A stretch of DNA of 64,000 bases from an uncultured Cytophagales bacterium (GTDB taxonomy: Bacteria > Bacteroidota > Bacteroidia > Cytophagales > 172606-1). Below, in pieces: positions 23,405-41,800 of this stretch. How positions within the stretch are numbered: position 1 is the first letter of the stretch; each line of letters opens with the position of its first letter. The stretch covers positions 3,574 to 67,573 of the forward strand of contig CADCTQ010000208.1 in NCBI GenBank assembly GCA_902805615.1, written 5' to 3'. The notes beneath the pieces are model-generated. The model searched no databases. It was not told the DNA's origin and saw only the letters and a list, made by a program, of their open reading frames with translations. The translations under genes were made by a program, and so were the position numbers.

Positions 23405-23570
23405 CAGAAAGTCAATTGATTGATGCGCTGATTGCGGCCGGCATCAAGGTGCAGTTGCTCAATAATGACCAGATAAAGATTACGGTTCCCGACGGTCCTT
23501 ACGACAAAGAGTTGCTGGAAAAGCTGCGGCGGCAGAAATCCGGGGTGGTCGAATACCTGAAAAAGATCGG
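23401..23570 (+). other. TubC-N-like NRPS docking domain
   Basis: MTESQLIDALIAAGIKVQLLNNDQIKITVPDGPYDKELLEKLRRQKSGVVEYLKK follows the pattern of TubC-type N-terminal docking domains (L..L...G..l......l....P.G....EL...L...K..l...L) and precedes the first C domain. Confidence 0.6.
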
Positions 23571-26500
23571 CAGAAGACGCGCCGGTGCCCGCGTGCTGGC
23601 CATCGAGGAACAGGAATACTACAAGCTGTCGAACGCCCAGCAGCGGGTGTGGCTCAAAGCCCGCCTCAGCAACCAGGAAAGCATCGTCCACAACAGCCCG
23701 TTGTCGTACAAGATAAAAGGCTTGGATAAGAACGCCTTTGCGTATGCTTTCCGGCAGTTGATCCACCGGCACGAAATCCTGCGGACGACCTTTATCACCG
23801 TAGCGGGCCAACCCAGGCAAAAGGTGCACGACAGCGCCTCCTTCTATTGCCGGATCGGGGAGGCAGACCTGCGCTGCGACCCGGATCAGGAACAGTCGCT
23901 CAACCGGTTGATGGCCCGGGAAATCAACGCGCGGTTCGACCTCGGGCAAGGGCCGCTGGTCAGGGCGACGCTGGTGCAGGTGGAGGACGACGAGCACGTG
24001 TTCCTGCTGGTCATGCACCACATCGTTATGGACGGGTGGTCTCTTGCCGTGATCGTGAACGAATTGCTGGCGCTGTACCAGGCGTATTGCCTGCAACGCG
24101 AGGACCCGCTGCCGCAACTGCAACTTCAGTACAAGGACTTCGTGCATTGGCAGCACAGGGCCATTACGCAGGAGGACGAAGCGTACTGGCTCGGTGAGAT
24201 CACCGGCGACGTGCCCAGGCTGGCGCTGCCGTCTGATTTTCCGCGGGGCAACCCGAGCAAGTTCAACGGCGGTCAGGTAAGGGTTTTGGTGCCGGCCCGG
24301 CAGGTGGGAACCCTCCGAACGTTTGCCACGGCGCGCAGCACGTCCCTGTCAACCGTTGTGTACTCGGTGTTCAGCATTTTACTGGCGCGCCTGAGCAATC
24401 AACCCCAATTCCTGGTTGGCGTCGCCAACGCCAATCGGAACCACCTTGACCTTGAACACCTGGTAGGTTTTTTCGTCAATACCCTGCTCATCAGGAACAC
24501 CATCGATGAGTCCTGCTCGTTCGAAGCGTACGTGGACCAGGTAACGCAACGGATGCTCAACGCGTTGCAACACCAGAATTACCCCGTTGACTTGCTGGTG
24601 GAGAAACTGAATCCCGAGCGAACCGCCGATCACCAGTCTTTTTTCAACGTCGTTTTCAGCTTCCAGAATTTTGGCGACCTGCGCCTGCCGGCAGGAAACG
24701 CGAACGACACCGCGGCGACCCTCCGGATCGAGGCGTTCCGGAATGATTTCGATTCGATGGAATTCGACCTGGTCTTTACCGTCATGGAATCCGACGGCGG
24801 CCTTTGGGTAAGCTTGCGCTACGACAAAGACGCTTTTTCCGCCGCATCGGTGGAACGGTGGGCGGGCATGTTTATGAAACTGGTTGCGCAGGTGTGCGAC
24901 AGCATGCCCGCCGGACGGCTCCGCCTGGCCGATTTGTCCGTGCTGGCGCCGGACGAGCATGAGCGGCTGGTCAACGCCTTCAACGACAACCGGACGGCGT
25001 ATCCCCGTACCGCAACCGTTCCGGGCCTTTTTCGCGAAGTCGTTGCAAAACACGGGGACAAACCCGCACTTCAATACCGGGGAAAGGTCTGCACCTACCA
25101 GGAACTGGAAGACCGGTCGAACCAGGTAGCCAATCTCCTGCACCAGCACCAGGTACAGACCGAAGACCGCGTTCTCCTGTTGATGGACCCCTCCGACGAG
25201 GCCATTGCCATCCTGCTGGGCATTCTCAAGGCTGGGGGGGCCTACGTTTTCATCAATCCGGATTACCCGGTCCGGAGAATCAACTACATCGCCGAAGACA
25301 CGGGCGCAAGGATCATTTTTTCCGAAAAGAAATACCTGCCCCTGATCGGGGAAATGCAGAAAAGCGGCAATGCTCCCGGCACCGTAGTGTACGTTGACGA
25401 TGAAGCGGACCTTGCGCACCTGAACGGCCGGGATACCCGCTACGCGCCGCCCGTGGTCACGGGCGACTGCCTCGCGTACATCACGTACACGTCGGGTTCG
25501 ACGGGTTATCCCAAGGGCGTATTGGTGGAGCATCGGGGCGTGGTCCGGCTGGTCAGGCAAACAAACTACATTGATATCCGTGACACCGACACCGTGGCCC
25601 AGACCGCGCCCATCGCTTTCGACGCGTCCACGTTCGAGATCTGGGGGGCGCTGCTTAACGGCGCCAAGTTGCACTTGCTCGACCCGCATGCGCTGCTGAA
25701 TGCGAAGCTCCTGCGAAGTTTCATGCGCGACAACGGCATCACCATTTGCTGGCTGACTTCCTCCCTGTTCAACCGGCTTGCCGACCTGGATGTCGAAATC
25801 TTTGCCCCGTTGCGGACTTTGCTGGTGGGCGGCGAGGCTTTGTCGGCGGCCCACGTCAACAAGGTACTCGGGGCGCACAAAGCCCTCACCCTCATCAATG
25901 GATACGGCCCCACGGAAAACACCACTTTCTCCAGTTGCTGGCCGGTTGAGCGGGAGTACGCCGCGGACATTCCCATCGGCAGGCCGGTAGCCAACAGCCA
26001 GTGCTACGTGCTCGATGACGCACGCCGGGTACAACCGATTGGCGTCGTGGGCGAGCTTTTTGTCGGGGGCGACGGCCTGGCCCGGGGCTACCTGAATGCT
26101 CCCGAGTTGACCCACGCAAAGTTTATCCGATCTCCCTTCGGGGGAGGGGAACGGTTGTACAGCACCGGCGACCAGGTGCGCTGGACGGAAGCGGGAATCC
26201 TTGAGTATAAAGGAAGGCGTGACCAGCAGGTGAAGATACGCGGATTCCGCATCGAGTTGAAAGAGGTCGAAGCGGTGATCAAACGCATCCCCGGCGTACG
26301 GGAGGCCGTCGTGGTGGAAGACCGGGACCAGGACCAGGAAAAATACCTGCAAGGCTATTTTACGTCGCCGGAGCACCTTTCGCCGAACGACGTCAGGAAA
26401 CAGATTGCCGGGTTCCTGCCGGCGTACATGGTGCCGGCGCAAATGCTCCAGGTCGATGCCATTCCGTTGCTGCCCAACGGCAAGGCAGACCACCGGGCAC

Positions 26501-29500
26501 TGCGAAACCTCAGGTTGCAGCTTAAATACGACCTGGCCGGCGACATTCAATTAAGCAGCACCGAAACAACCCTCCGGGCCATTTGGGAAAATATGCTGGA
26601 CCGGAAGAACATCCGGCCGGAAGATGACTTTTTCGAACTGGGCGGCCACAGCCTCAAAGCCGTCATGGTCGCCGCCTTGGTCTCGAAAGAGCTGGGAATC
26701 GACGTCGACATGAGTGCCCTCTTTAAGCATACGACCATTCGCGCCCTGGGCCGCGCCCTGGATGCGCAAATTCCGCAGAGGGGCCACGAAGCGATTCCCG
26801 GCATTGAAGAACAAGCCCACTACCCGCTTTCCCACGCGCAAAAAAGACTGTGGGTGCTCGAGCACGCCGGTACCGGCACGAGTGCTTACAACATGGGGTT
26901 TGCCTTCCTGCTGCGGGGGGCGGACTACGCCGTACTGGCCGGTGCCTTGCAGCGGGTGGTTGCCAGGCACGAAATCCTGCGGACGGTATTCAAAGTCATT
27001 GACGGCGAACCCCGGCAACGCGTGCTGCCACCGGATGTGCCGTTCCGGGTGCCTTGCGTTGATCTCGGGCACCTTGCCGATGGGATATCGTTGGCGAGGG
27101 AATCCGTTAAACGGGATGCGGACACCTTGTTCGACCTGGAAAACGGCCCGCTGCTGAGGGCGAAGCTTATCCGGGTGGATGACCACGCGCACGTCCTGTT
27201 CCTGGGGATGCACCACATCATTGCCGATGGCTGGTCAATGGATGTGCTCTTCAAGGAAATTGCCTCCTCCTACAATGCCATCCTGACGGGCGAGCCCTTG
27301 ACGCTGGACCCGCTCGCGGTGCAGTACAAAGATTTTACAGTGTGGCAGAACAAGCAACTCAGCGACGATCACTTCAGTGCGCACCGGCAGTACTGGCTCG
27401 ACACTTTCCGGGGCGACATTCCCGTACTGCCCTTGACCACCGACCGCCCGAGGCCCGCGCGGCAAACCTACCACGGCGACAAAGTAAGCATTGACCTCGA
27501 ACCGGCCCTGTGCGATCAGCTGAAAGCCATGGGGGTGGAGCGTTCGGCCAGTCTGTTCATGCTGCTGCTGGCGTCGGTGAAAACGTTTTTGCTGCGTTAT
27601 ACGGGGCAGGAAGACATCGTAGTGGGTACGGTTACCGCCGGCCGCAGCCACGTGGGGCTTAACAACCAGATTGGGTATTATCTAAACACGCTGCCCCTGC
27701 GCACGCGGTTGTCCGGCCGGGATACGTTCCTGGACGCCGTTGGCAAAGTCAGAAAGGCAACCCTCGACGCATTCAACCACGAAGGGTATCCTTTCGACAA
27801 ACTGGTGAGGGAGCTTGCATTGGACCGGGATCCCGGCCGGTTTCCGTTATTCGACGTGCTGGTAGCCCTGCAGAACGCCCCGGACGCGTCGGCCAGTTAC
27901 CCGATGCACAACGTACAGGTGTCGGCTTTCGATTTCGGCGCCACGCAGCACAGTAAGTTTGACCTCTCATTCATCTTTTCGGAGCAGGGGCCTGCGGTCA
28001 CCTGTGCGGTGGAATACAATACCGATCTTTTCGACCCGAACCGAATCGAGCGGCTGGCCCGCCACTACTTGCAGTTTCTGCGGGCAGTGCTGGCGTCGCC
28101 CGAAGCTGCCGTTGCGGCCCTGGCTTACACCACCGGAACCGAGCGCCGCCAGTTGGTGCAGCAGTTTTGCGGGGGAGAGGCTGTCGCCGTACCAAATTCT
28201 TTCATCGAAACCTTCGAGCAACGGGTTGCCGCCCACCCGCAGCGGGCCGCGATCCGGTACCAGGACCGCTCCATCAGCTACGAAGCATTGAACGCGGCGG
28301 CCAATAAAGTTGCCAACCATTTCCGGCAACAGTACGGGATCAGGCCCGACGATCTGGTCGGCGTGATGGTAGAACGGTCGCCCGAACTAATCATCGCGTT
28401 GCTGGCAATCCTGAAGTGCCGGGCGGCCTTCGTCGCCCTGGAGACAGCGTTTCCCAGGAAAAGAATGGAATATATGCTGTCGGATACCGGCATCGGCTTA
28501 CTGGTAACCGGTTCTGACAACCTGTTCAATCTCGACTTTTTCCAGGGCAACCTCTTCTGCATCGACCTGGAGCTGCCGCAGTTGGCGTCGTCGGCCGAAA
28601 ACCCCGCGGCCGATCAGACGGAAAATCCGCTGGCTTACGTCCTGTATACTTCCGGCACTACCGGCACCCCCAAGGGCGTGCAAATCGGCGCGGCCAGCCT
28701 GATGAATTACTTACAGTGGGCAAACAAACGCTACCTGGGTGACCTCGATAAGGCAGTGTTCGCCGTGTTTTCGCCGGTAACTTTTGACCTGACGCTTACC
28801 AGCATCTTTGCGCCGTTGGCCGGCGGGCATACCTTGAGGATATTCCCCCACCATTTGCCGGTGAACGAAGTCCTGTCAGAAGTGTTCGGCCACGGGAGTG
28901 ATGTTGCCGTGGTGAAGCTGACGCCCTCCCACCTCGACCTGCTGAACCTGTTAGACCTGCCCGAAACGGACGTGAAGAACGTGATCGTCGGCGGGGAAGC
29001 CCTGCTCGACCGGCACGTACAAACCCTGCGAAAGCTGAATCCTTCCGTCAAGATCTTTAACGAATACGGACCCACCGAGACCACCATCGGCTGCACCGTA
29101 GCCGAAGTGCTCGGGCAAATCCACATTGGCCGCCCCATCGACAACACCAACATTTACATCCTGGATGCGGACCTGCAACTGGCGGCCGTGGGCGTGCCCG
29201 GAGAGATTTGCATCGGCGGCGCCGCGGTCGGCGAGGGGTACTTGAACCGGGCCGAACTGACTCAGCAAAAGTTCATTGCCTACGCGGGGGAAGACGGCCG
29301 CACCGACCGGCTCTACCGGTCAGGCGACATGGGATACTGGACGCCCGGTGGCGACATCCGGTTGATGGGCCGGAAGGATGCGCAGGTAAAAGTGCGCGGA
29401 TTCAGGATAGAAACCGCTGAGGTGGAGCGCGTGCTGGTGAATCACCCGGCGGTAGCCCTGGCGCACGTGTACGTTACAAAGGACGCAACCCGCGAGCCGC

Positions 29501-32289
29501 GGCTCAGCGCGGCGATCCACCCCACCGACGACCAGGCGTTTACGCTGAACCGGTTGCTGCACCTGAGAAAGCACAATCCGAAGGCCGCCGACAAACTGTA
29601 CCAGTTGCCCAATGGCATGGTCGTCTGTCATAACAACAAGAACGAAACGGACCTGGTGTATTTCGAAATTTTTGAAGACCTCACCTATCTCAAATACGGC
29701 ATCGAGATCAACGCCGGGGACGTGGTCGTTGATGTCGGGGCCAACATCGGTCTTTTTTCATTGTTCGTAGGCAACCATTTCCCCGGCACCAAAATCTACA
29801 GTTTTGAACCGGTGGCACCCGTGTATGAGGTGCTTAAAGTAAATTTATCGCTGTACGACATCCAGGCGACTCCTTTCAATGCCGGCATGGGCGATAAGCG
29901 CGAAAAAGTAACCTTTCAGTACTATCCCAACAACACCGTTTTATCGGGGCGTTTCGGCAGCGCGGACGAAAAGGTGAACGTCAAGAAGTACGTTCAAAAC
30001 CGCGCCGCCTTCGACCGGCTCAGTATTTCCGATGACCAAATCGACGCCCTGATTGAAGAACGGGTGCTGTCGGAAGAAGTGGAATGTGAGCTGACGGCCT
30101 TGTCCGACTTTATCCGTGAGCAATCCCTGACCTGCATCGACCTGCTTAAGATCGACGCCGAGAAAAGCGAGCTGAACATCATCCGGGGCATCCGCGAAGA
30201 GGATTGGCGCAAGATAAAGCAGGTCCTCATCGAGGTGCACGACATCGGCGACAGCATCAGTGAAATAGAATTCATCCTGAGGGCGCAAGGCTTCCAGGTT
30301 CAGCGGGACCAGGACGACCTGCTGCAAGGCACCGACATCTACAACCTGTATGCCTCCCGCAAGCCGCTTAAAGACAAACACGCCGTACTAACACCCGCCA
30401 AAGCATTCAATGCAAACGGCAACTGGACCCTCGGCGATGCCCTTATCAATGAGCTGAAGGCTTTCTGCAAGGACTACCTGCCGGAATACATGATTCCGTC
30501 CCAATTCGTTCTGGTGGATCACATTCCGCTGACGGCCAACGGCAAGCTCGACCTGAAGGCCATTGGCGCAATGGAAACGCCGCAACCGCCCACCGTGGAC
30601 GAAGGGTACGCGACCTGGACCCATACCCAGAAGGTCCTGGCGGCGATCTGGACCGGGATTGTTGGCAAGCAGCACGTCAAATTATCGGACGACTTTTTCA
30701 AAATCGGCGGGCATTCCCTGAACTCGGTTCAGTTGATTGCCAGGATTCAACACCACTTCAACAAGGTGCTTTCGGTAGCGGATGTGTTTAAGCACTCCAC
30801 CCTGGAGCAGCTTTCCCGAATCGTTGAGGCAAAACCGGCGTCGGCTTCCAATCCGATAACCCCCATTGAGGAGCAGGAGTTTTATGAGATGTCTCACACC
30901 CAGAAAAGGATCTGGCTGTCGAGCCAACTGGAAGAAAACCGCCTCATCTACAATATACTCTCGGCGCACGAAATCAAGGGGCTCAACGTGGACGCTTTCA
31001 TGCGGGCCCTGTCGTGCATCATCCTCCGGCACGAGATCCTGCGGACCACTTTTAAGGAGTTGAACGGGGCACCCCGGCAGTTCGTCAACCGTGCCCCGCA
31101 GCCGGCCAGTTACGTGTGCACGATCAAACTACCCGCTGAACAGCGGAGAGAGCTGATCAAAGCTGAAGCGGCCCGGTTGTTTGACCTGGAAAACGGACCG
31201 CTGTTACACGTTACCATTGCCGATGCGGGCAACGACAGCCACCTGGTCGTGCTGACGATGCACCACATCATCAGTGACGGATGGTCCTTGGACGTTTTCT
31301 TTAAGGAGTTCATTGCCTTGTATGACCTGATCGTGGATGGAAAAGAAAAAGCAATGATCCCCCTGCGCATCCACTACAAGGACTACACGGCGTGGCAGAA
31401 AGCGCAACTGAACGGGGAGGTTTTTGAGCGGCTCGGGTTGTTCTGGCACCACAAACTAGGCAAACAGATCGTGGCGCTGAATTTCACGCCGGATTTTCCA
31501 AGGCCGGCCATCCAGACCTTCAACGCGAACAGGATATCAATGGTGCTCGACAGCGAGCTGACCCGGCAGATCAGGAGTTTTACGCGCACACGTGACACTA
31601 CTCTGTTCATGATGTTCACTTCGGTCATGTACATCCTGTTCCGCTACTACACCGGGGAAGATGACATCATCATCGGAACGCCGGTGGGAGGCCGGGAGAA
31701 CCTGGCCCTCGAAAATCAGATCGGTCCGTACATCAATACGTTGCCCGTACGCTTCCGGACCGACGTGCAGGCAGATTTCGAGCAGCACCTCAAAAATGTG
31801 CGCGCGGATATTTTGTCGATGTACGATCACCAGGCTTACCCGTTCGATCTGATGCTGAATGCGCCCGGGGTGACCATTGACCGGGCGCGGTCGCCCCTGT
31901 TCGACGTAGGGTTTACCTGGCAGAATACCGACGGGATTTCGGGCGAATCAGCGTACAAAGCCCACCGGTCCCTGGAGATTGAGGGGGTAGAAGTACAGGC
32001 AGAAAGGGTTAAGACCGACTTCTGGTTCCACGCCTGGGAGGAGGGGGAGTCGGTAGTTTTCAGTCTCATGTACAACGCCAATCTGTACAAAAAGGCCACG
32101 TGCGAAAACCTGCTGAGCGATTACAGAACGTTGATTACCCAGCTCATCCTCAAGCCCGGGGTTCCGGTTGAAGACCAGTTGGACGGATTGCGCCAGAAAA
32201 AACTGGATCGGCAATCGGCCGCGGCGCACAGTGCCTACAACAGCAACCTGCAGAAGCTATTGCAGTTTACCACAACCCAGAAAGACTAA
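23401..32289 (+). CDS. NRPS-3: docking-C-A-T-C-A(FkbM-type MT insert)-T-C
   Basis: 2962-aa ORF. Its ATG overlaps the NRPS-2 stop (ATGA at 23401-23404). Motifs, in order:
- C: HHIVMDGWS
- A: YTSGSTGYPKGVLVEH
- T: LGGHSLKA
- C: HHIIADGWS
- A: YTSGTTGTPKG, interrupted by a methyltransferase domain
- T: IGGHSLNS
- terminal C: HHIISDGWS
Hand-extracted codes: DAFWLGGTFK (Val-type) and DLTKIGEIGK (Asp/Asn-type). Confidence 0.97.
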   Translation: MTESQLIDALIAAGIKVQLLNNDQIKITVPDGPYDKELLEKLRRQKSGVVEYLKKIGRRRAGARVLAIEEQEYYKLSNAQQRVWLKARLSNQESIVHNSPLSYKIKGLDKNAFAYAFRQLIHRHEILRTTFITVAGQPRQKVHDSASFYCRIGEADLRCDPDQEQSLNRLMAREINARFDLGQGPLVRATLVQVEDDEHVFLLVMHHIVMDGWSLAVIVNELLALYQAYCLQREDPLPQLQLQYKDFVHWQHRAITQEDEAYWLGEITGDVPRLALPSDFPRGNPSKFNGGQVRVLVPARQVGTLRTFATARSTSLSTVVYSVFSILLARLSNQPQFLVGVANANRNHLDLEHLVGFFVNTLLIRNTIDESCSFEAYVDQVTQRMLNALQHQNYPVDLLVEKLNPERTADHQSFFNVVFSFQNFGDLRLPAGNANDTAATLRIEAFRNDFDSMEFDLVFTVMESDGGLWVSLRYDKDAFSAASVERWAGMFMKLVAQVCDSMPAGRLRLADLSVLAPDEHERLVNAFNDNRTAYPRTATVPGLFREVVAKHGDKPALQYRGKVCTYQELEDRSNQVANLLHQHQVQTEDRVLLLMDPSDEAIAILLGILKAGGAYVFINPDYPVRRINYIAEDTGARIIFSEKKYLPLIGEMQKSGNAPGTVVYVDDEADLAHLNGRDTRYAPPVVTGDCLAYITYTSGSTGYPKGVLVEHRGVVRLVRQTNYIDIRDTDTVAQTAPIAFDASTFEIWGALLNGAKLHLLDPHALLNAKLLRSFMRDNGITICWLTSSLFNRLADLDVEIFAPLRTLLVGGEALSAAHVNKVLGAHKALTLINGYGPTENTTFSSCWPVEREYAADIPIGRPVANSQCYVLDDARRVQPIGVVGELFVGGDGLARGYLNAPELTHAKFIRSPFGGGERLYSTGDQVRWTEAGILEYKGRRDQQVKIRGFRIELKEVEAVIKRIPGVREAVVVEDRDQDQEKYLQGYFTSPEHLSPNDVRKQIAGFLPAYMVPAQMLQVDAIPLLPNGKADHRALRNLRLQLKYDLAGDIQLSSTETTLRAIWENMLDRKNIRPEDDFFELGGHSLKAVMVAALVSKELGIDVDMSALFKHTTIRALGRALDAQIPQRGHEAIPGIEEQAHYPLSHAQKRLWVLEHAGTGTSAYNMGFAFLLRGADYAVLAGALQRVVARHEILRTVFKVIDGEPRQRVLPPDVPFRVPCVDLGHLADGISLARESVKRDADTLFDLENGPLLRAKLIRVDDHAHVLFLGMHHIIADGWSMDVLFKEIASSYNAILTGEPLTLDPLAVQYKDFTVWQNKQLSDDHFSAHRQYWLDTFRGDIPVLPLTTDRPRPARQTYHGDKVSIDLEPALCDQLKAMGVERSASLFMLLLASVKTFLLRYTGQEDIVVGTVTAGRSHVGLNNQIGYYLNTLPLRTRLSGRDTFLDAVGKVRKATLDAFNHEGYPFDKLVRELALDRDPGRFPLFDVLVALQNAPDASASYPMHNVQVSAFDFGATQHSKFDLSFIFSEQGPAVTCAVEYNTDLFDPNRIERLARHYLQFLRAVLASPEAAVAALAYTTGTERRQLVQQFCGGEAVAVPNSFIETFEQRVAAHPQRAAIRYQDRSISYEALNAAANKVANHFRQQYGIRPDDLVGVMVERSPELIIALLAILKCRAAFVALETAFPRKRMEYMLSDTGIGLLVTGSDNLFNLDFFQGNLFCIDLELPQLASSAENPAADQTENPLAYVLYTSGTTGTPKGVQIGAASLMNYLQWANKRYLGDLDKAVFAVFSPVTFDLTLTSIFAPLAGGHTLRIFPHHLPVNEVLSEVFGHGSDVAVVKLTPSHLDLLNLLDLPETDVKNVIVGGEALLDRHVQTLRKLNPSVKIFNEYGPTETTIGCTVAEVLGQIHIGRPIDNTNIYILDADLQLAAVGVPGEICIGGAAVGEGYLNRAELTQQKFIAYAGEDGRTDRLYRSGDMGYWTPGGDIRLMGRKDAQVKVRGFRIETAEVERVLVNHPAVALAHVYVTKDATREPRLSAAIHPTDDQAFTLNRLLHLRKHNPKAADKLYQLPNGMVVCHNNKNETDLVYFEIFEDLTYLKYGIEINAGDVVVDVGANIGLFSLFVGNHFPGTKIYSFEPVAPVYEVLKVNLSLYDIQATPFNAGMGDKREKVTFQYYPNNTVLSGRFGSADEKVNVKKYVQNRAAFDRLSISDDQIDALIEERVLSEEVECELTALSDFIREQSLTCIDLLKIDAEKSELNIIRGIREEDWRKIKQVLIEVHDIGDSISEIEFILRAQGFQVQRDQDDLLQGTDIYNLYASRKPLKDKHAVLTPAKAFNANGNWTLGDALINELKAFCKDYLPEYMIPSQFVLVDHIPLTANGKLDLKAIGAMETPQPPTVDEGYATWTHTQKVLAAIWTGIVGKQHVKLSDDFFKIGGHSLNSVQLIARIQHHFNKVLSVADVFKHSTLEQLSRIVEAKPASASNPITPIEEQEFYEMSHTQKRIWLSSQLEENRLIYNILSAHEIKGLNVDAFMRALSCIILRHEILRTTFKELNGAPRQFVNRAPQPASYVCTIKLPAEQRRELIKAEAARLFDLENGPLLHVTIADAGNDSHLVVLTMHHIISDGWSLDVFFKEFIALYDLIVDGKEKAMIPLRIHYKDYTAWQKAQLNGEVFERLGLFWHHKLGKQIVALNFTPDFPRPAIQTFNANRISMVLDSELTRQIRSFTRTRDTTLFMMFTSVMYILFRYYTGEDDIIIGTPVGGRENLALENQIGPYINTLPVRFRTDVQADFEQHLKNVRADILSMYDHQAYPFDLMLNAPGVTIDRARSPLFDVGFTWQNTDGISGESAYKAHRSLEIEGVEVQAERVKTDFWFHAWEEGESVVFSLMYNANLYKKATCENLLSDYRTLITQLILKPGVPVEDQLDGLRQKKLDRQSAAAHSAYNSNLQKLLQFTTTQKD
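29500..30440 (+). other. FkbM-family (Methyltransf_21-like) methyltransferase domain inserted between A8 and A9 of the NRPS-3 second A domain
   Basis: About 300 aa lie between A8 (GRKDAQVKVRGFRIETAEVE, ~29365-29425) and A9/A10 (LPEYMIP at 30478-30498; NGKLD). The insert contains VVDVGANIGLFS (29722-29757), KIYSFEPV and IDLLKIDAEKSELNIIRG, the FkbM-type signature. Confidence 0.85.
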
Positions 32290-32378
32290 TACCCATTCGT
32301 TGTCGGTTGCTGGCAATGACCAGGTTTTCAACGACGGCAGTCCGGTCAGGTACGCAATTCTAAATTCATTTCATACTG

Positions 32379-32789
32379 ATGCATACGATGAAAAAGAAAG
32401 CCTATATCGCTCTTTCGAAAATACCGAGCGCCGGCAATGGACTATTCGCCAAAATGATTATTCGGCCCAACGAACTGATCGAAGACAACGCAGTCGCAGT
32501 CACGCGTTACGACAACCCTACCGCCCTGCGCCTGATGAAAGAGTTTAACCTCAACTACGTGGAAGACCAGTACCTGGCCTTCGAATGGGGGGAGCGGGAA
32601 AAGTACCTGACGTTCTGCCAGGGACTGATCCAGTACGTGAATCATTCGGACGCACCCAATACCCGGGTGGAGCGTGACTACGTGAATAACCGGCTCAGGC
32701 TTTACTCGTTGCGCGAAATTTCAAAAGACGAAGAATTTACGCACTACTACGTGGACCGCGACGAATACATCAAAAACAACAAGTTCTGA
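32379..32789 (+). CDS. SET-domain protein (putative protein/peptide lysine methyltransferase-like)
   Basis: 136 aa. SET hallmarks: IPSAGNGLFAKMIIRPNELI (GxG region), YVNHSDAPNTRV (NHSxxPN) and REISKDEEFTHYY (EELxxxY). Alternative start at 32388 (MKKK). Confidence 0.75.
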   Translation: MHTMKKKAYIALSKIPSAGNGLFAKMIIRPNELIEDNAVAVTRYDNPTALRLMKEFNLNYVEDQYLAFEWGEREKYLTFCQGLIQYVNHSDAPNTRVERDYVNNRLRLYSLREISKDEEFTHYYVDRDEYIKNNKF

Positions 32790-32796
32790 CTGTTGA

Positions 32797-32824
32797 GTAC
32801 CCGGACGAAATCCGTTCGGGGTAC
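32797..32824 (+). terminator. imperfect GC-rich stem-loop just after the SET gene stop (possible terminator or attenuator)
   Basis: GTACCCGGACG-aaat-CCGTTCGGGGTAC: 6 bp plus 5 bp of pairing with one bulge and one G-U pair, 8 nt after the TGA at 32787-32789. No U-tract follows. Confidence 0.3.
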
Positions 32825-32923: not shown

Positions 32924-34549
32924 ATGGATATGGAACAGCAACTCTTCTTAAAACCCAATGTAGTCATCGAACCTTTGTTTGATAAATGGTACGCCTGGCC
33001 TCACCTGATTTCGCCCGCCACTGCCGCACTCAACATCCTTGACCGGCATTTGAAAATCATGAACTCATACGTTCAGGCGCCCCAGATCCACGCCGCGGCG
33101 GTTAAGAATCCGAAGATGTTGGGAGGGCCGTTCATGGACCTGGGCGGCAAGCGCGTGGAGGAAGTAAAGGAACTGAAAGCCAACACCCTGGCGCGGCAGC
33201 AGGACCTTATTGAACTGGCCCATGCCATCAAGCAACTCAATAAAATGCTGAAGGAGTCGGCAAAGGGCTATTCGTTGGAAGGTTTGTACGAAAAAGTCCC
33301 TGATCCCCTGAAAGGGTACGTTGAACTGGTGTATGACCTGAACCACAATCCCTCGTTCAGATTCTACGAAAGCCTGTTGTACAACAGCAAGTATTATAAA
33401 CCATCGTCGCAGAGCGTTGCCCTGTGGCTGACCGAAAACGACGAACGTCCCTTCGTGTTAAGTACGCCCCGGCTGCCCGACGACAAGGTACTGCACCTGG
33501 ACATGCCGTTCGCCCACCCCGGCATTGATGAATTGTCGAAGATGAGGCGGCTGCCCAACACCTTGTCGCACATCCGTAAAGTGTTGCCGCTTTCCGGAAA
33601 GGATGAAAAACTGCTGGAGACTTTTTTTACGACCGATCCCTACATTCCTTACAAAAAATACGAGGGCGACAGCATCAGGATGCGCTACTTCGGGCACGCC
33701 TGTATTCTTATCGAGACGAAAGATGTCTCCGTGCTGGTGGACCCGTTGATCAGCTATTACGGGTACATGAGCAGTATCAATCATTTTTCCGACTACGACC
33801 TTCCCGATACCATTGACTACGTGCTCATCACGCATAACCACCAGGACCACATCCTCTTCGAGACGCTGCTTCCGCTAAGGCACCGGATCAAGCACCTGGT
33901 GGTGCCGAGAACAACCAGTGGCGCGTTGCAGGACCCCAACCTCAAATACATGTTCAACGCCATTGGCTTCCGCAACGTCATTGAGATCGGCGACATGGAG
34001 CAACTCACTTTCAGTGATTGCGTGATCACGGGTATTCCTTTCATCGGTGAGCACAGTGACCTGAACATCCAGGCTAAAATCTGTCACCACATCAGGATCG
34101 GCCAGTTCTCGGTGCTGTTCGTGGCTGATTCCTGCAACATCGAACCGCGGTTGTACCAGCACATTCACGCCCAGACGGGAGACGTTGACGTCTTATTCCT
34201 CGGAATGGAGTGTGAGGGGGCGCCGCTTTCCTGGTTATACGGTCCATTGCTGCCCGAGGAAATGGAACGCGACAAGGATTTTTCAAGAACACTGTCAGGC
34301 TCCAATTTCAAGCGGGGAAAGGCGCTGGTAGACGTCTTCAACCCCCGTGAGGTGTACGTCTACGCCATGGGACTGGAGCCCTGGCTGGAGTTCATCAGCA
34401 GCAAACGGTACACCGACCAGGACCACCCAATCAAGGAGTCAGGAAACCTGGTGACCTATTGCAGAAGCAAAAATATCGTTTCTGAACGCCTGTTCGGGGA
34501 GAAAGAGCTGATGCGTGAAAAATACCTTGAACCCGCGCTGGTGAACTAG
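32924..34549 (+). CDS. CmlA-like non-heme diiron beta-hydroxylase (metallo-beta-lactamase fold) for carrier-bound amino acids
   Basis: 541 aa, close to the CmlA length class. It has an N-terminal non-MBL domain followed by an MBL-fold core with FGHACILIE, VLITHNHQDH (HxHxDH), IGEHSD and FVADSC. Confidence 0.75.
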   Translation: MDMEQQLFLKPNVVIEPLFDKWYAWPHLISPATAALNILDRHLKIMNSYVQAPQIHAAAVKNPKMLGGPFMDLGGKRVEEVKELKANTLARQQDLIELAHAIKQLNKMLKESAKGYSLEGLYEKVPDPLKGYVELVYDLNHNPSFRFYESLLYNSKYYKPSSQSVALWLTENDERPFVLSTPRLPDDKVLHLDMPFAHPGIDELSKMRRLPNTLSHIRKVLPLSGKDEKLLETFFTTDPYIPYKKYEGDSIRMRYFGHACILIETKDVSVLVDPLISYYGYMSSINHFSDYDLPDTIDYVLITHNHQDHILFETLLPLRHRIKHLVVPRTTSGALQDPNLKYMFNAIGFRNVIEIGDMEQLTFSDCVITGIPFIGEHSDLNIQAKICHHIRIGQFSVLFVADSCNIEPRLYQHIHAQTGDVDVLFLGMECEGAPLSWLYGPLLPEEMERDKDFSRTLSGSNFKRGKALVDVFNPREVYVYAMGLEPWLEFISSKRYTDQDHPIKESGNLVTYCRSKNIVSERLFGEKELMREKYLEPALVN

Positions 34550-34597: not shown

Positions 34598-36319
34598 ATG
34601 ACAATTTGCGGAATAAAGTTGACTCACGATGGGGCAATTGCGCTTATCGATAACGGGAAGTTGATTTTTTCCATTGAAATGGAAAAACTTGACAACAACA
34701 AGCGCCACGCAGCTTTTAACCTGACGCTTGAAAAGATCAACGCCCTGATGGGCGAGTACGGGTACAGCCTGGACGAGCTGGACCGCCTGGTGATCGACGG
34801 CTGGGGCAATGAGCTGAACCCCGCCGGCGACGGAAGCAAAAACTATTCACTGGACGTGAGTTTGCGGGGAACCGACAAACTGACCATCGGCCTGGCCTCG
34901 TACGGCCACTTGGTGGCCGATGAAGACCTGCTCAAAGGCTTGGCCTTTCATTACAACGTGGATGGATTTGAGCTGAGATACAACAGCTACCCGCACGCCG
35001 CCGGGCACATCTTAGGCGCTTATTGTACAAGCCCCTTTGCCAGTCGGAACGAAGATTCCTTCGTGTTGGTCTGGGATGGCGGCATGCCCCCGCAGCTTTT
35101 TTACTACCGGTGTCAAGAAAATAAAGTAGAAAATCTCGGCCCGTTATTCCTGCTGATGGGATTCATCTACATTAATTTTCCCCATGCGTTCGAACCCTTC
35201 AGCAAGTTGCCCAAGGACCTCTCGATTGCCGGCAAAGCCATGGCCTACATCGCACTCGGCAACGTGCAGGGTGAACTGTTACAAGTGTACAGGCAAACGT
35301 TCGCAGCGGTGCTCAACGAGGCGAAAGACCTGCGGGTGACGCCCGAGCTGTGCGTCATTGTAACGCAGGAATTCATTAAAAACGCCACGACCCCCGCAAT
35401 CAGGAGCCAGTATACGTCGGATGACATGCTCACCACCTTTCACGCCTTCATGGAAGAATTGCTGGTTGAAAGCATCGGACGGAAAGTAAAGGACTATCCC
35501 GGCTATAAAAGGAATCTGTGTTTTGCCGGAGGATGCGCCTTGAACATAAAATGGAACAGCGCCCTGCGCGAAAGCAAGCTCTTTGAAGGCGTGTGGGTGC
35601 CGCCTTTTCCCAACGATGCGGGCAGCGCCATCGGTACCGCGTGCTGCGAGATGGTCAATCAGGGTATGCGCAGCCTGGCGTGGAACGTATACAGCGGGCC
35701 GGCCCTGAGGGTATCCGGGATGGACCAAGGCTGGCAAGCGGCCAAGTGCTCCGTTGAAGAACTGGCACGTATGCTGCACGAAGTAGGAGAGCCGGTCGTC
35801 GTCCTGAACGGACGGGCAGAACTAGGCCCGCGTGCGCTTGGGAACCGAAGCATTGTAGCGCCGGCGACTGACTTTGGCATGAAGCAACTCCTGAACACAA
35901 TCAAGGTCCGGGAGCATTACCGTCCCGTGGCTCCGATCTGCCTGGAGCAGGATGCACCCGCCATTTTTGACCCGGGTTCCCCCGACCCTTTCATGTTATA
36001 CGACCATTTGGTGAGGCCGGATTGGCTGGCAAAGATCCCGGCCGTGTGTCACCTGGACCAGACGGCCCGCCTGCAAACGGTAAACGCTGCCGATAACCCG
36101 GTCATTTATAACTTGCTGACCTGTTACAAGGCGCTCAGCGGAATTCCCCTGTTGTGTAACACCAGCGCCAACTTCAAAGGGAAAGGTTTTTTTCCCGATG
36201 CCGAAAGCGCGATGACGTGGGGAATGGTCAACTACGTTTGGAGTGAGGGCATTCTGTTCACGAAAGCCGGAAAAGACCAATGGACGGCAGTAAGTCGGCT
36301 GCAATCAGAAAAAATATAA
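34598..36319 (+). CDS. NodU/CmcH-family carbamoyltransferase
   Basis: 573 aa. Motifs: MTICGIKLTHDGAIALIDNGKLIFSIEMEKLDNNKRH (N-terminal motif), FAGGCALNIKWN, GRAELGPRALGNRSI, KVREHYRPVAP, HLDQTARLQTV and LCNTSANFKG. Confidence 0.9.
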   Translation: MTICGIKLTHDGAIALIDNGKLIFSIEMEKLDNNKRHAAFNLTLEKINALMGEYGYSLDELDRLVIDGWGNELNPAGDGSKNYSLDVSLRGTDKLTIGLASYGHLVADEDLLKGLAFHYNVDGFELRYNSYPHAAGHILGAYCTSPFASRNEDSFVLVWDGGMPPQLFYYRCQENKVENLGPLFLLMGFIYINFPHAFEPFSKLPKDLSIAGKAMAYIALGNVQGELLQVYRQTFAAVLNEAKDLRVTPELCVIVTQEFIKNATTPAIRSQYTSDDMLTTFHAFMEELLVESIGRKVKDYPGYKRNLCFAGGCALNIKWNSALRESKLFEGVWVPPFPNDAGSAIGTACCEMVNQGMRSLAWNVYSGPALRVSGMDQGWQAAKCSVEELARMLHEVGEPVVVLNGRAELGPRALGNRSIVAPATDFGMKQLLNTIKVREHYRPVAPICLEQDAPAIFDPGSPDPFMLYDHLVRPDWLAKIPAVCHLDQTARLQTVNAADNPVIYNLLTCYKALSGIPLLCNTSANFKGKGFFPDAESAMTWGMVNYVWSEGILFTKAGKDQWTAVSRLQSEKI

Positions 36320-36434: not shown

Positions 36435-37472
36435 ATGGAAACCCACAACGCATTGGCTCTGCCTGAAAATACGCTCCGCCCGTTTCTGTGGGTGGAGCAG
36501 CAATCTTGTGCGCTCCGGACGCGTGCCGGGCTACCCGGAATACCGGCGGGCGACATACCCGGATTGCCTCTGGTGATCGCCGCGGGAAACAAAGACGTTG
36601 ATTTAAGCGCCTGGATGAGCGAGAACAGGGCCGAACTCCGACAACTGCTGAGGAAGTGCGGCGGGATTCTGTTCAGGGGGTTTGGTATCCGGTCCTCGGG
36701 TGACTTCAAGGCTTTGGTGACCCAGTGGAGTGGCAGACAGATGGAATACTTCGACCAAACTTCCCCCAGAAGCCTGATTGACGACGCCGTGTATACCTCC
36801 ACCGACTACCCGTCCGATCAACGCATCAAAATGCACAACGAGCTTTCGTATGCCCACCGGTGGCCGCTGGAGATATTCTTTTTTTGCGTGCAGCCCGCCG
36901 ACGCAGGGGGCGAAACGCCCATCGCCGACTGCCGGAAAGTGCTTTCGAAATTAAGCAAAAGGACACTGGAAAAATTCTCGGCGAAAGGAGTGATGTACGT
37001 CAGGAACATGATTGATGGCCTGGGGCTTTCCTGGCAGCGGGTTTACCAAACGGATGATCCCGAAAAAGTAAATGCACACTGTACCAGGAATGGGATCCGC
37101 TTCGCGTGGAAAGGCGAAGATCACCTTAAAACGGTTTGGACCAGGCCGGCGGTCGGCAAGCACCCGGTTACCGGTGAAGCCACCTGGTTTAATCACGCCT
37201 ATTTCTATAACATTCTGTCAACCAACCCTTTGTTGCTCGACTTGGTCGACGATAAGGACGAGTTGCCATTTAACACCTATTACGGCGACGGGTCGGAGAT
37301 TGAACCGGAGGTGATCGAAGAGATCGGCGGCGCGTTCGACAACACCCGCGTCACGTTTACATGGGAGACGGGAGACCTGCTCCTGCTGGACAATATGCTG
37401 ACTGCGCACGGCAGAAGTTCCTACACGGGTCAGCGTAAAGTTCTCGTTTCCATGTGCGAGCCCGTGTTCTGA
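36435..37472 (+). CDS. TauD/TfdA-family Fe(II)/2-oxoglutarate dioxygenase, SyrP-like (putative aspartyl beta-hydroxylase)
   Basis: 345 aa. Motifs: GGILFRGFGI, YTSTDYPSDQRIKMHNELSY (HxE facial-triad part), FFFCVQPADAGGETPIADCRKV, WFNHAYF and LTAHGR. Confidence 0.85.
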   Translation: METHNALALPENTLRPFLWVEQQSCALRTRAGLPGIPAGDIPGLPLVIAAGNKDVDLSAWMSENRAELRQLLRKCGGILFRGFGIRSSGDFKALVTQWSGRQMEYFDQTSPRSLIDDAVYTSTDYPSDQRIKMHNELSYAHRWPLEIFFFCVQPADAGGETPIADCRKVLSKLSKRTLEKFSAKGVMYVRNMIDGLGLSWQRVYQTDDPEKVNAHCTRNGIRFAWKGEDHLKTVWTRPAVGKHPVTGEATWFNHAYFYNILSTNPLLLDLVDDKDELPFNTYYGDGSEIEPEVIEEIGGAFDNTRVTFTWETGDLLLLDNMLTAHGRSSYTGQRKVLVSMCEPVF

Positions 37473-37537: not shown

Positions 37538-38830
37538 ATGCCTGATTTCGTTGTAAAAAGCCTGCGGTCACCTTCCCAACGCTGGATCGAAAACCATTCT
37601 AACCACGCGTTAGGAACCCTCATCCGACTTTCGCTCCGGGAAGTCCCCGAGGCTGACCCGTTTACCGCATCCTTCCGGCAGTTATTGTCGCGGCATCACA
37701 TCCTGAGCGCCAGTGGCACTGATCCGTACCAGGAGGCGCCGTCGCTGGAGGTACTGGACAGGGCCGGTCTGGCCGCTGCCAATGGCCGGGAAGCAGACCC
37801 GTGGCTTGGGTTCAAACGGCGCATTGTGAACGAACGCGCCTTCAGGGTGTGGCTGGTAAAATCTGCCGGCGGGGCCAAAGTGTTTTTGTACCTGCCCGCG
37901 GTCATCGGCGACGCCGCGTCGGCGGTGCACCTGTGCCGGGAGTTGATCGGGTTTTACCGGGGCAGTGAAACTTTGCCAACTTCCGCGCCGCCACTGCAAT
38001 TTGCCCAGTACGCCGCCTGGCACAATGAGCTTTTGGACGAACCCAACGCGGAAGCGGAAATGTTTTGGCAGCAGTTCTCCGGCCGGATGCCATTGCCGAG
38101 AAAACTTACCGTTGAAAAAAATGGCGGACCAGAAAGGGATTCGTTACTGGACAGCATCCGGTTTGCGATTCCCGGGGGGGACAACGTGCGCACCCCTGCG
38201 GGCGGGGAGCGCCTGCCCGGGGAGTCGTTTATGTTGACCTGCTGGAGCGTCGTGCTTGCCCAGTACCTGGTGGAAGCAGATTACGTGATGGGCAGAATCG
38301 GTTCCGGGCGTTCGTATGATTTGTTTGAGAATATTACCGGTCCTTTTTCGCGGCCGTACCCCGTGAATATAGCCTTTCCTGCGTCAACGACGTTCGCAAC
38401 GGCGGTACGGGAAGTAACGGCCCAGTTGGCCCTCGCCCAAGCGTGGCAGGACCACCTGAACCTGGAAAAGTTTAACCCGCCCCCAACCTCGTCCGCCGGT
38501 TCCTTCTTCCCGTTCGGTTTTGAGCTGATTCCCGCGGATGAAACGTTACGCCAGTTTACGGACGAATGCATAGAAGACGTGTATACCCTGTGCGAGCCGT
38601 TCAAGCTGAAATTGCTGGCCTTGGCCGGGAAGGCTGACGTACAGTTTCAACTGTATTTTGATCCGGCGCTTTACGACCGCGAATTCGTGGTGGTGTTGCG
38701 GGACCGGTTCACCCGTGTTTTCAGTAAAGCGGTTTCCGATCCGGAGGTGACCCTGACCGACCTGCGGGCGGCTACCGCCGAGGATCTGCAATACATTGCG
38801 GCGCACGCCGGATGGAACGACGACCGCCCC
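37538..38830 (+). other. full-length condensation-like domain lacking the catalytic His motif (interface-like or pseudo-C domain)
   Basis: Fold-length region with C-like features (FAQYAAWHNELL, MFWQQF, PLPRKL) but no HH: the motif position reads LPAVIGDAAS. It lies directly downstream of the SyrP-like gene and directly upstream of an Asp-type A domain. Confidence 0.65.
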
Positions 38831-41800
38831 GGATTAAAGGGCAACTTTAAGGAATTGTTTGAGGAGCGGGCGCTGACGACACCGGACCAGGCCGCCGTTT
38901 CTTACGAGGGGCAACACCTCACGTTCGGGCAACTGAACGCCCGGGCCAACCAACTGGGCGCGTACCTGCGGCGGCATTTCGGCCTGCGGAGCGAAGACAT
39001 CGTTGCCGTGAAATGTGAGCGCTCCATCGAGATGATTGTTGCATTGCTCGCCGTTATAAAGGCCGGCGGCGCCTTTCTGCCCGTGGATGGGCAATCACCG
39101 GAAGCCAGGTTGAACAGCATCCTTGCCGACAGCAACGCCAGGCTACTGATCACGTCCGGGGATACCGTTGAGCGCAACGTCACCCGGGTGGACCTGAAAA
39201 GGCAGGAGGAAGAAATTCAAAAAGAGGACGTAGGCAATCTGCCGGCCGCCATCCGGCCGTCTTCCGGGGTCTACGTCATCTATACGTCGGGTTCAACGGG
39301 GCAGCCCAAGGGCGTGATGGTCTCTCACGGGGCATTGGTCAATTACCTGACCTGGTTTATTGATGCCTACCAGATCGGTGTCCGGGACAGAACGCTGGTT
39401 TTGTCATCGGTGGCCTTCGATCTTACGTACACAAGTTTGTTCTCGTCGCTGCTCGCCGGGGCTTCGCTACACCTATTGAAGGAACGGGAACACTTTGATG
39501 CAGAAGACATGACCACCGCCCTGATTGCGCAGGGGATTACCTACCTCAAGTTAACCCCTTCCCATTTTGGCCTGCTGGTGAATGATCCGGCGTTCGAGGA
39601 GCAGCGGGAAAAATACCGGCTGCGGCTGGTTATCCTCGGGGGAGAGGAGATCAACGTCGCTGACGTACAAAAGTACATGTCCGGCAACCCCGATTGCCTG
39701 TTCGTGAATCACTACGGGCCTACCGAAACAACCATTGGAGCTGCCGTCAGGGAGATCAGCAGCCATACCCTCGGGACGTTCGCGCAAAAGCCGGTCATTG
39801 GAAAACCAATCCGGAACAACAAGGTGATCATACTCGACGATGCCGGCCGCGTTGCGCCCGTTGGCGTACCGGGTGAAATTTGCATTGCCGGAGCGGGCCT
39901 GGCCAACGGGTACCTCAACAGTCCGGTACTCACCGGCGAGAAATTCGCGTGGTTTGATTCCGGTGCCGGATTTTTCAATCAGCGCCTCTACAGAAGCGGC
40001 GACGCCGGTTTCCTGCTGGCCGATGGGAACATCGCTTTCCTGGGCAGAAAAGACAACCAGGTGAAAATAAACGGCTTCAGGGTGGAGACCGGTGAAGTGG
40101 AACATGCCCTCGAAGGGTACCCGGGAGTCGATAAGGCAGTGGTGATCCCCGTGAAGAACACCGCGGGAAAACATGAGTTGTACGGCTACCTGTGTGCCGG
40201 CAATGCGGTGACGGCGGCCTCGCTCAACGCATACCTCCGGGAACGCATTCCGCAGTACATGATTCCCAAAGACTACAAAAGAGTGCCTGCCATTCCCCTC
40301 ACCCCCAACGGGAAGGTGAACCGTAAAAAACTACTGGAAATGCCGGCCGTCCCGTTGGTGCGGGAAAACGCCGTTGAACTGCCGGCGAACGAGGTGGAGC
40401 AGAAACTGGTGGAGGTCTGGAAAAGCGTGTTGAACTGCGACGGCGTGGGCGTGAATGATAATTTCTTTCACGTCGGCGGCGATTCGATCAAAGCCATCCA
40501 GGTTGCTTCCCGGATGCACGCTTCGGGATACAAACTGAACATCCGGAATTTGCTGAAGTTTCCCGTGCTCAAGCAAATGGCCACCAAGGTTGAGGTGGTC
40601 CGCCAGGCACCCGACCAGTCGAGCGTACAGGGCGTAATCCCGTTAACGCCAATCCAGGCCAGGTTTTTACGGAACATAAAGACCGACCCGAGTCATTATA
40701 ACCAGTCGTTTCTGCTCCGGTTTGACCAAACGCTGGACCGGAGGACCGTCGAAATACTCTTCGACAAACTGCTGGCGCACCACGACATGCTGCGGGTTAC
40801 CTTCCGGAGAGAAGGTTCGCGGTACGTGCAACTGGCCAATGGCACCGGTCAGCGGCTCGCCGTTGAGGAAGTTGACCTGGCAGAACACCCGGATGCGGCG
40901 TCCCGTTTTCAAGCCCACGCAACCGACCTCCAGCGGCGGCTTGCTATCACCGAAGGTCCGCTGGTCAAAGTCGCGCTCTTTCATTTTGCCGGCCACGCGA
41001 AGCTGTTGGTGGTGATCCACCATTTAATTGTTGATTTCGTGTCGTGGCGCATCCTGCTGGAAGACCTCAATACCCTGGTGCAGCAGCATCAACAAGGCGC
41101 ACCGTTGCAGTTACCGCCCAAAACCAGCTCCTACAAAGCCTGGTCGGAGAGCCTGCTGGCCTACGCCGGGTCGGATGACTTCGCCAGGGAGAAGGGCTAC
41201 TGGGAAAATCAGGCGCAGCTCGACGTACCGGCCATCCAGCCTGACTATGCGCAGGCAACGAACCTGACCAGGGATGAGGCATCCGTGTCTTTCGCGCTTA
41301 CCGAGGCGCAAACCCACGTGCTCCAGGCCAGGATAAACCCGGCGTTCGGAACCAACATGAATGACGTATTAATTACCGCGGTCGTCGTGGGTTTCAGGGA
41401 AGTATTCGGGCACAACCGGCTGTCCATCGACTTGGAAGGACACGGCCGGGAAGATATTCAGGAGGCCGTTGATACCAACAGAACGGTCGGCTGGTTTACC
41501 AGCATTTACCCGGTCGTGCTCGATGCGTACGGCAAGGGGAGTCTGGTGGAGGAGCTGGTAAACGTTAAAGAGACTTTGCATAAAGTCCCGCGCGGGGGAA
41601 TCGCCTACGGCGTGATGCGTTACTTGGGCAGCGAAGGCGTTACACTCCCCGGGAGAGAGCCCGCTTCGCAAATAATTTTTAATTATCTTGGTCAATTTAA
41701 CAGTGAAATAAGTCAACTTTCTTATATATTAGCTAACGAAACGAAGGGCGTCGAACGCAGTGGTCGCCAGGACCTGCTGTACGAATTCAGGATTGGCGCC

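Follow-up and report, generated by a model that had tools for sequence, protein, structure and literature searches.

The described SET-domain proteins that most resemble the one considered here are vSET (A612L of PBCV-1) and Set7 of S. pombe, proteins of about 120-135 aa that consist of the SET core only, carry the GxG, NHSxxPN and ELxxxY motifs, and methylate histone H3 (K27 and K37) in eukaryotic nuclei. A second described case is GigC of Epichloe festucae, a SET protein that is genetically required for the N6-mono- and dimethyl-lysine of the epichloecyclins, which are peptides made on the ribosome and modified after translation (RiPPs; PMC10540207). Here we report a SET gene in a 64,000-nucleotide stretch of DNA, the window, from the metagenome-assembled genome (MAG) of an uncultured Cytophagales bacterium (contig CADCTQ010000208.1). 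The gene occupies 32379..32789 on the + strand and its product shares the size, the core-only architecture and the motifs of vSET and Set7; at the same time it is 22-25% identical to them, bears a distinct signature (D60, R96-D97, N100, H119 and D123), and is encoded in a bacterial operon of non-ribosomal peptide synthetase (NRPS) genes. We believe that the locus most likely represents the recruitment of a SET methyltransferase to non-ribosomal lipopeptide pathways of bacteria, a use for which the literature searched has no bacterial report. In the cases known to us, N-methylation in NRPS pathways is carried out by class I methyltransferase domains, and SET-fold N-methylation of lysine or 2,4-diaminobutyrate (Dab) side chains would, if true, constitute a new enzyme class in NRPS tailoring.

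An earlier note on this DNA, made by a model from the letters, had described a 136-aa open reading frame (ORF) with three SET hallmarks, and all three are present in the translation as GNG, NHSDAPN and EEFTHYY. The probable start is the second in-frame ATG, at 32388, which gives a protein of 133 aa; the GenBank model (CAA9257904.1, 133 aa, MAG AVDCRST_MAG56, on an 87-kb contig) begins there and is identical from M4 onward. In an alignment of the window SET with 49 homologues (50 sequences), residues G16, G18, N85, H86, S87, P90, N91, E116 and Y121 are invariant or at least 90% conserved. Thus both glycines of the GxG (G-N-G) loop for binding S-adenosylmethionine (SAM; 32433..32441, + strand, as are the other motifs) are conserved in at least 90% of the sequences, the N, H, S, P and N of NHSDAPN, SET motif III (32640..32660), are nearly invariant, and in EEFTHYY, SET motif IV with the catalytic tyrosine (32730..32750), Y121 is invariant, E116 nearly so, and H119 is a signature residue. 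The Pfam SET profile PF00856, which the note had proposed as a check, matches at 38.8 bits against a cutoff of 22.4 (E=1.4e-9), over residues 19-124 and model positions 1-104 of 105; an NCBIfam search of the same protein matched no model.

A profile built from the alignment has S. pombe Set7 (1.3e-32) and PBCV-1 vSET (3.5e-27) as its top matches, and the AlphaFold2 (AF2) monomer model, with a mean confidence score (pLDDT) of 82.5, retrieves 376 structures in Foldseek at E<=0.001, the best 50 of the 376 being without exception SET/KMT lysine-methyltransferase structures, led by vSET (3KMA, target-normalised TM 0.85) and then Set7 (5H6Z). The first strand of the SET fold starts at residue 5, and a helix at 124-130 is the last confident element of the model; the protein is a SET core alone, 133-136 aa with a single Cys and no further Pfam domain above the curated cutoff. 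Because the motifs are intact, the Pfam match spans the whole model and the structural matches agree, we read the window protein, from its sequence and predicted fold, as a complete minimal SET enzyme of the vSET/Set7 type, without pre- or post-SET modules. Enzymes of that type are dimeric and require the homodimer for activity. The Phe/Tyr switch position may align near V94/E95, in an uncertain register.

The genomic setting also separates this enzyme from its structural relatives. All genes from 385 to 55737 lie on the + strand, in the order NRPS-1, NRPS-2, NRPS-3, SET, CmlA-type hydroxylase, carbamoyltransferase, TauD, NRPS-4, MacB/FtsX permease and NRPS-5, and they make up a lipopeptide NRPS cluster of at least 55 kb. 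The SET gene was said in the note to sit within a tailoring cassette, and so it does: it is co-directional with its neighbours, begins 89 nt after the NRPS-3 stop (32289), ends 134 nt before the CmlA-like start (32924), and stands between NRPS-3 and the CmlA, carbamoyltransferase and TauD genes. NRPS-1 (385..13128, +) has the organisation FAAL-T, three C-A-T modules and a final C domain (where FAAL, C, A and T are fatty-acyl-AMP-ligase-like, condensation, adenylation and carrier domains), as judged from Pfam at the N-terminus and from motif and BLAST domain maps. The Pfam-defined start of the protein, a fatty-acyl-AMP-ligase-like domain followed by a carrier domain and a C domain, corresponds to lipo-initiation. 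Ten-residue specificity codes were read from the A domains after alignment with a GrsA-PheA reference segment, and the code that had previously been given for modules 1 and 2 of NRPS-1, the Lys-like DTESIGTVCK, was reproduced for both (A domains at 3766..5181 and 6913..8304, +). The two A domains are about 49% identical overall and yet agree at 10/10 code residues, which argues for selection for a common substrate.

We would give an even chance to the proposal that the window SET is dedicated to this pathway and N-methylates the side-chain amines of Lys-like residues. Modules 1 and 2 would install these residues adjacent to the fatty-acyl chain, and the SET enzyme would methylate their epsilon-amines one to three times, with SAM as the donor, acting on a carrier-bound aminoacyl or peptidyl intermediate, on the released lipopeptide or, less likely, on free lysine before its activation. 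In SET enzymes the peptide is bound in extended form and its lysine enters a narrow channel, and for that reason an acyl-Lys-Lys peptide, carrier-bound or released, would suit the enzyme more naturally than free lysine does; the free-amino-acid option stays because an operon that combines a transaminase, an EctC-like protein and a SET protein exists, as described below. We infer the enzyme activity itself, the use of peptide lysine rather than protein as substrate, the number of methyl groups and the timing of their transfer.

SET genes are associated with NRPS genes in more than this one case. When 1.84 billion representative proteins were scanned in full with HMMER (E<=1e-3), only 93 matches were returned, with identity above 50% only for the organism's own variant, and a single-protein word-index search found the 98% identical copy alone. 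Among the weaker HMMER matches, however, is P0012, a 265-aa protein whose gene follows an NRPS C-A-T gene at a distance of 25 nt, and it belongs to a group of proteins, hereafter tandem-SETs, that are made of two fused SET-like halves. Three further members, P0103, P0104 and P0105, were recovered through a subfamily alignment and a degenerate DNA pattern (the pattern gave three loci), and P0069 was already in the HMMER list; loci L023, L025 and L026-L028 carry P0103, P0104, P0105 and P0069, and the tandem-SET genes lie at L021 8001-8798, L025 10001-10756, L026 10001-10720 and L023 527-1270. In the N-terminal half of these proteins NHS, PN and E..H.Y, including the tyrosine, are kept but GxG is gone; the other half, at the C-terminus, is degenerate. 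Three long contigs (L021, L025 and L026) share a conserved gene order, which runs FAAL-like-T-C, A-KR-T (KR, ketoreductase), C-A-T, SET, ABC ATPase, FtsX permease, TP_0789-like protein, a gene of unknown function, class-III aminotransferase and phosphopantetheinyl transferase (PPTase), with a fatty-acid hydroxylase ahead of the PPTase in some. In L025 the SET stop overlaps the ABC start. The C-A-T module directly before the tandem-SET has the code DDRH(I/V)GLPDK, whose positions 236 and 331 are acidic, and the class-III aminotransferase scores 554-602 bits on the model for diaminobutyrate-2-oxoglutarate transaminase (cutoff 438). P0103, on a contig of 3.6 kb (L023), adjoins the diaminobutyrate transaminase and a PPTase-like ORF.

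One further member, P0085, was in the first match list and is recognised by the profile hidden Markov model (HMM) of the tandem family. It is encoded in an operon (L029 4471-7668) with a diaminobutyrate-type transaminase (49% identical to that of L026), an EctC-like cupin and a formyltransferase-like protein; no NRPS gene was seen on this 8-kb contig, and a weak class-I methyltransferase-like ORF lies upstream of the operon. The operon may encode a pathway to an N-methylated, Dab-derived solute. Because the diaminobutyrate transaminase is the constant partner of SET in the tandem clade, and with it the supply of a diamino acid, the gene content suggests that the acceptor there would be the amine of a small molecule or peptide metabolite. 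It is possible, although we hold it only tentatively and as distinctly less probable than not, that a scattered set of bacterial minimal SETs are small-molecule or peptide-metabolite N-methyltransferases acting on the side-chain amines of diamino acids, that is, on lysine here and on 2,4-diaminobutyrate in the Massilia-type lipopeptide and the EctB/EctC-like operon.

Paired SET genes were also observed at other loci. A contig that looks archaeal (GCA_003173915.1) has two SET genes side by side at L020 8001-8970, flanked by a gene of the EF-Tu family (GTP_EFTU) and that of ribosomal protein S10, with genes of the mevalonate pathway upstream. At L022 62-1056 and at L024, which are loci of the same type and of high GC, two SET-like genes overlap or adjoin each other and the second lacks NHS, an intact-plus-degenerate pairing of separate genes like that within the fused tandem-SET proteins.

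Eight signature residues (D60, F65, W67, R96, D97, N100, H119 and D123 in the 133-aa numbering) bring the window SET and the tandem-SETs together: 7-8 of the eight are found in the window SET, in those of its relatives that are protist-like and in the N-domains of the tandem-SETs P0012, P0103, P0104 and P0105, against no more than 6/8 in the 48 other aligned SETs. We treat the window SET and the tandem-SETs as two cases of SET in an NRPS setting that, on these sequences, may or may not share ancestry. The NRPS modules adjoining the two SET types are not specifically related, and Foldseek gave only weak matches (E ~1e-3) for the two-domain tandem model, so that the idea of a pseudo-dimer was not confirmed.

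Several points weigh against the proposal that the window SET methylates the Lys-like residues of this pathway. All SET enzymes characterised to date act, to our knowledge, on proteins or peptides, so that methylation of free or carrier-bound lysine would be new chemistry. The Lys label itself comes from agreement at 8/10 positions with DAESIGSVCK, which we take to be the lysine reference code and for which the literature searched gave no confirmation. The closest relatives of the window SET (37-41%) are protist transcriptomes or uncharacterised metagenome and Sequence Read Archive (SRA) contigs, not biosynthetic gene clusters (BGCs): next to the organism's own variant come a transcriptome of Vexillifera abyssalis (Amoebozoa, 41%), a Tara Oceans contig (37%) and Bolivina argentea (37%). 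In a neighbour-joining distance tree the grouping of the window SET with the tandem-SETs has a bootstrap of 0.04, the distances being saturated, and the HMM of the tandem N-domain scores the window SET at 58.7 bits, not above some other minimal SETs, such as P0021 at 63 bits. Finally, a search with the CmlA protein against GTDB representative genomes, in which the source genome itself is not among the matches, found 15 Bacteroidota loci at 64-68% identity, and within 10 kb of them neither tblastn nor a SET HMM run on six-frame ORFs found a SET, carbamoyltransferase, TauD or MacB gene. Lacking these four, the 15 loci are not orthologous clusters, and the CmlA search of GTDB representatives found no orthologous cluster in another species. 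The co-occurrence that had been suggested as a check therefore has a divided outcome, with no syntenic cluster elsewhere and 15 CmlA loci without SET on one side, and signature-sharing tandem-SETs in another NRPS family on the other.

The protist relatives bear on the view that the gene is a passenger, a possibility already raised in the earlier note. On this view it would encode an unrelated protein-lysine methyltransferase, gained by transfer and perhaps of protist origin or common to protists as well, that acts on a cellular protein or on a protein of prey or host and has no part in the peptide in spite of its place in the cluster. We regard this as rather unlikely. It fits the default biochemistry of the SET family, the nearest non-self homologues do include the two protists just named, and no other bacterial protein exceeds about 40% identity among the 1.84 billion representatives. 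Known bacterial SETs are, in the available text of a review, described as acting on host chromatin (PMC3980110). The protist sequences hint at transfer between bacteria and protists, in either direction; under the broader reading of bacterial minimal SETs as N-methyltransferases of diamino acids, they would mark a transfer between domains of life. At the same time, SET genes recur in other NRPS operons, and the window protein, whose SET fold starts almost at its N-terminus in the AF2 model, has no N-terminal extension for secretion. The Bolivina argentea (Foraminifera) relative, for its part, is fused to a cystatin domain.

Composition speaks to the same question. The gene had been described as more AT-rich than the flanking NRPS genes, and in total GC it is (0.499 versus 0.58-0.59), but at third codon positions (GC3) it is not, with 0.686 versus 0.68-0.75 in its neighbours. 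The CmlA (0.525) and MacB (0.509) genes are similarly low in total GC. Since its GC3 matches that of the neighbours, the lower total GC of the SET gene reflects amino-acid composition rather than foreign DNA. No flanking repeats or signs of mobile elements were found around it. The 89 nt between NRPS-3 and SET (32290..32378, +) have a fold that is not unusual (z = +0.87), and no sigma-70-like promoter or terminator was called in them; none was called anywhere around the SET gene as a promoter or canonical terminator, and the Bacteroidetes-type promoter motif TTTG...TAnnTTTG has zero matches in the whole window. The stem-loop noted earlier after the gene is present at 32797..32824 (+, dG -15.6 kcal/mol), but it has no U-tract, was not called a terminator, does not recur elsewhere in the window and is missing from a sister strain.

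That strain is represented by L001, a Logan contig from another sample with about 97% nucleotide identity, which keeps the order of NRPS-3 end, SET and CmlA. Four of the 89 spacer bases differ there, and the synonymous/non-synonymous codon changes number 5/3 in SET, 13/15 in the NRPS-3 tail and 22/13 in CmlA. Divergence starts exactly at the SET stop, the ORF being 3 aa longer in L001: the 105 nt at 32788-32892 that bear the hairpin are replaced by 81 unrelated AT-rich nt (1538-1618 of L001), and similarity returns 31 nt before the CmlA start. The SET gene is thus conserved and constrained in the sister strain and the hairpin is not. Two further assemblies, L018 and L019, have the identical arrangement, which therefore is not an assembly artefact, and the same order is found in four independent assemblies overall. 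Taken together, the passenger view is weakened by the GC3, the absence of repeats and mobile-element traces, the retention of a constrained gene in a diverged strain although the adjacent spacer was replaced, and the agreement of the four assemblies; the total GC below that of the NRPS genes, the gene's own spacers of 89 and 134 nt and the hairpin still speak for it.

The remaining A domains bring in a different alternative, in which the SET protein is a pathway methyltransferase with another acceptor, such as the residue installed under one of the codes DIWVLGADDK, DAKHSGTICK and DSELTAEVCK. Other options would be a position that is hydroxylated or at the N-terminus, or a group resembling His. 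After the two Lys-like modules, the codes run DLFTLMLTYK (module 3), DAKHSGTICK (module 4), DSELTAEVCK (module 5, followed by an epimerization (E) domain), DLFNNALTYK (module 6, Ala), DAFWLGGTFK (module 7, Val-like), DLTKIGEIGK (module 8, Asn-like), DLTKIGHIGK (module 9, Asp, followed by an E domain), DIWVLGADDK (module 10), DLTKLGHIGK (module 11, Asp) and DAFFLGITYK (module 12, Ile-like). Four of them, those of modules 3, 4, 5 and 10, have no assigned residue and leave room for such an acceptor; the acceptor suggested for the tandem-SET clusters is Dab and not Lys, and SETD3 is an example of histidine methylation by this fold (PMC6400499). We nonetheless consider another acceptor improbable, given that the Lys-like modules alone have a recognisable primary-amine side chain and that the protein has the motifs of canonical SET enzymes directed at lysine.

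These modules are distributed over the other synthetases, all on the + strand. NRPS-2 (13268..23404) reads A-T, C-A-T-E and C-A-T with the Ala code, and NRPS-3 (23401..32289) reads C-A-T with the Val-like A domain followed by C-A-T-C, whose Asn-like A domain has an FkbM-type methyltransferase inserted. This second, in-line methyltransferase of the cluster (Pfam Methyltransf_21, 70 bits, window 29731-30297) splits the A domain between A8 and A10 and is of a type unusual for NRPSs. NRPS-4 (37538..42010) is a single C-A-T-E module with an Asp code, and NRPS-5 (44713..55737) has three modules (codes 10-12, with Asp second and the Ile-like code third) and a C domain at its end. As NRPS-5 ends in a C domain and the domain maps show no thioesterase in the window, the assembly line is incomplete within it. 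No long + strand ORF is found in 55738-64000; the largest ORFs there are on the - strand, at 57404-58312 and 61508-62800, and neither has a Pfam match even at E<=1.

Downstream of SET on the + strand, the CmlA-type diiron beta-hydroxylase (32924..34549) combines Pfam CmlA_N (335.6 bits) with a metallo-beta-lactamase (MBL) fold and matches 8a90 (1e-128) and CmlA 4jo0 (1e-112) in the Protein Data Bank. The NodU/CmcH-type carbamoyltransferase (34598..36319) has Pfam Carbam_trans_N and Carbam_trans_C and scores 629 bits on NCBIfam NodU, under the equivalog cutoff. The TauD-family Fe/2-oxoglutarate dioxygenase (36435..37472; Pfam TauD, 154 bits) was considered as a trimethyllysine dioxygenase, but its only NCBIfam match, a partial one to that model at 31 bits against a cutoff of 268, is too weak for the assignment. 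The duplicated ABC permease of MacB/FtsX type (42029..44431; Pfam MacB_PCD and FtsX, NCBIfam ADOP family) would serve export.

The presence of this permease touches on the idea that the SET enzyme serves self-resistance or regulation, methylating the producer's target protein, an NRPS or a regulator and so protecting the cell or tuning synthesis. It is general knowledge that BGCs often carry target-modifying resistance genes, SETs are protein methyltransferases by default, and the operon position fits co-expression. A cationic lipopeptide, however, is more likely to act on membranes, the cluster already has its MacB-type exporter, nothing specific supports the idea, and the diaminobutyrate transaminase that accompanies SET in the tandem clade, even in the P0085 operon with no NRPS gene in view, points to a small-molecule amine and away from a protein target; we give this explanation very little credence.

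Should the window SET prove to be a pathway-dedicated lysine N-methyltransferase, the consequences would reach beyond this cluster. The charge of cationic lipopeptides would become tunable or permanent, a property relevant to antibiotic activity and to resistance against proteases, and PF00856 inside a BGC would become a new marker for genome mining. Bacterial SETs, which have mostly been viewed as effectors aimed at host chromatin or as genes transferred from eukaryotes, would acquire a native function. The idea is already open to test in a cultured strain with a related cluster, Massilia sp. GER05, whose genome is complete: its protein WP_440964820.1 falls in the 90% cluster of P0104 and its NRPS WP_440964822.1 in that of the adjacent C-A-T protein, and from this cluster membership and the adjacent accessions we infer that the tandem-SET operon is present in Massilia sp. 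GER05.

How, then, does the window SET compare with what has been described? The literature searched for a role of SET in NRPS or bacterial natural-product pathways gave work on fungal chromatin regulation and GigC only, and the available text of the review of bacterial SETs (PMC3980110) has no mention of peptide synthetases, secondary metabolism or operons. The earlier remark, which knew of no SET domain used as an NRPS tailoring enzyme, holds, accordingly, only for NRPS pathways and for bacteria, as GigC does tailor a fungal RiPP (PMC10540207). Two other candidate precedents were set aside: the chitinopeptins of Chitinophaga, considered for N-methyl-Lys, contain N-methyl-Val from an in-line methyltransferase domain instead and involve no SET, and in the work on the muscarine/trimethyl-lysine pathway the enzyme was not identified. 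GigC and the window SET are alike in that each is a SET enzyme encoded in a cluster for a peptide natural product, a likeness of role; GigC is fungal and acts on a ribosomal precursor peptide, whereas the window SET is bacterial and would act on a non-ribosomal one. Pfam scans of the large neighbouring ORFs, made without a search for short precursor-peptide ORFs, found no DUF3328 or peptidase S8, and since they gave no RiPP maturation genes we do not file the window SET with the GigC-type RiPP methyltransferases.

The tandem-SETs resemble it in setting: like the window SET they follow an NRPS module within the operon, have MacB/FtsX-type export genes downstream and share the signature, with 33-41% identity over the C-terminal half; they differ in their two fused halves, in their different NRPSs and in the likely acceptor, diaminobutyrate rather than lysine. 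Secreted bacterial SET effectors, which we take to be represented by RomA/LegAS4 of Legionella, NUE of Chlamydia and BaSET of B. anthracis, are directed at the host and belong to pathogens, whereas the window SET lacks additional N-terminal sequence, belongs to a Cytophagales MAG from soil and is in an operon with biosynthetic genes. A parallel in concept lies with the bacterial JmjC/JOR dioxygenases found in NRPS neighbourhoods, which have been proposed as peptide-tailoring ancestors of the histone demethylases (Iyer et al. 2010, PMC2938197); the available text of that paper has no report of SET domains in such neighbourhoods. Their fold and chemistry (hydroxylation or demethylation) are different, but as far as that text goes they too are a family of eukaryotic chromatin modifiers with bacterial members near NRPS genes and a predicted role in peptide tailoring. 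In this light, a SET methyltransferase at work in a lipopeptide pathway would, if true, support an origin of histone-modifying families as bacterial tailoring enzymes of peptide metabolites, in parallel with JmjC.

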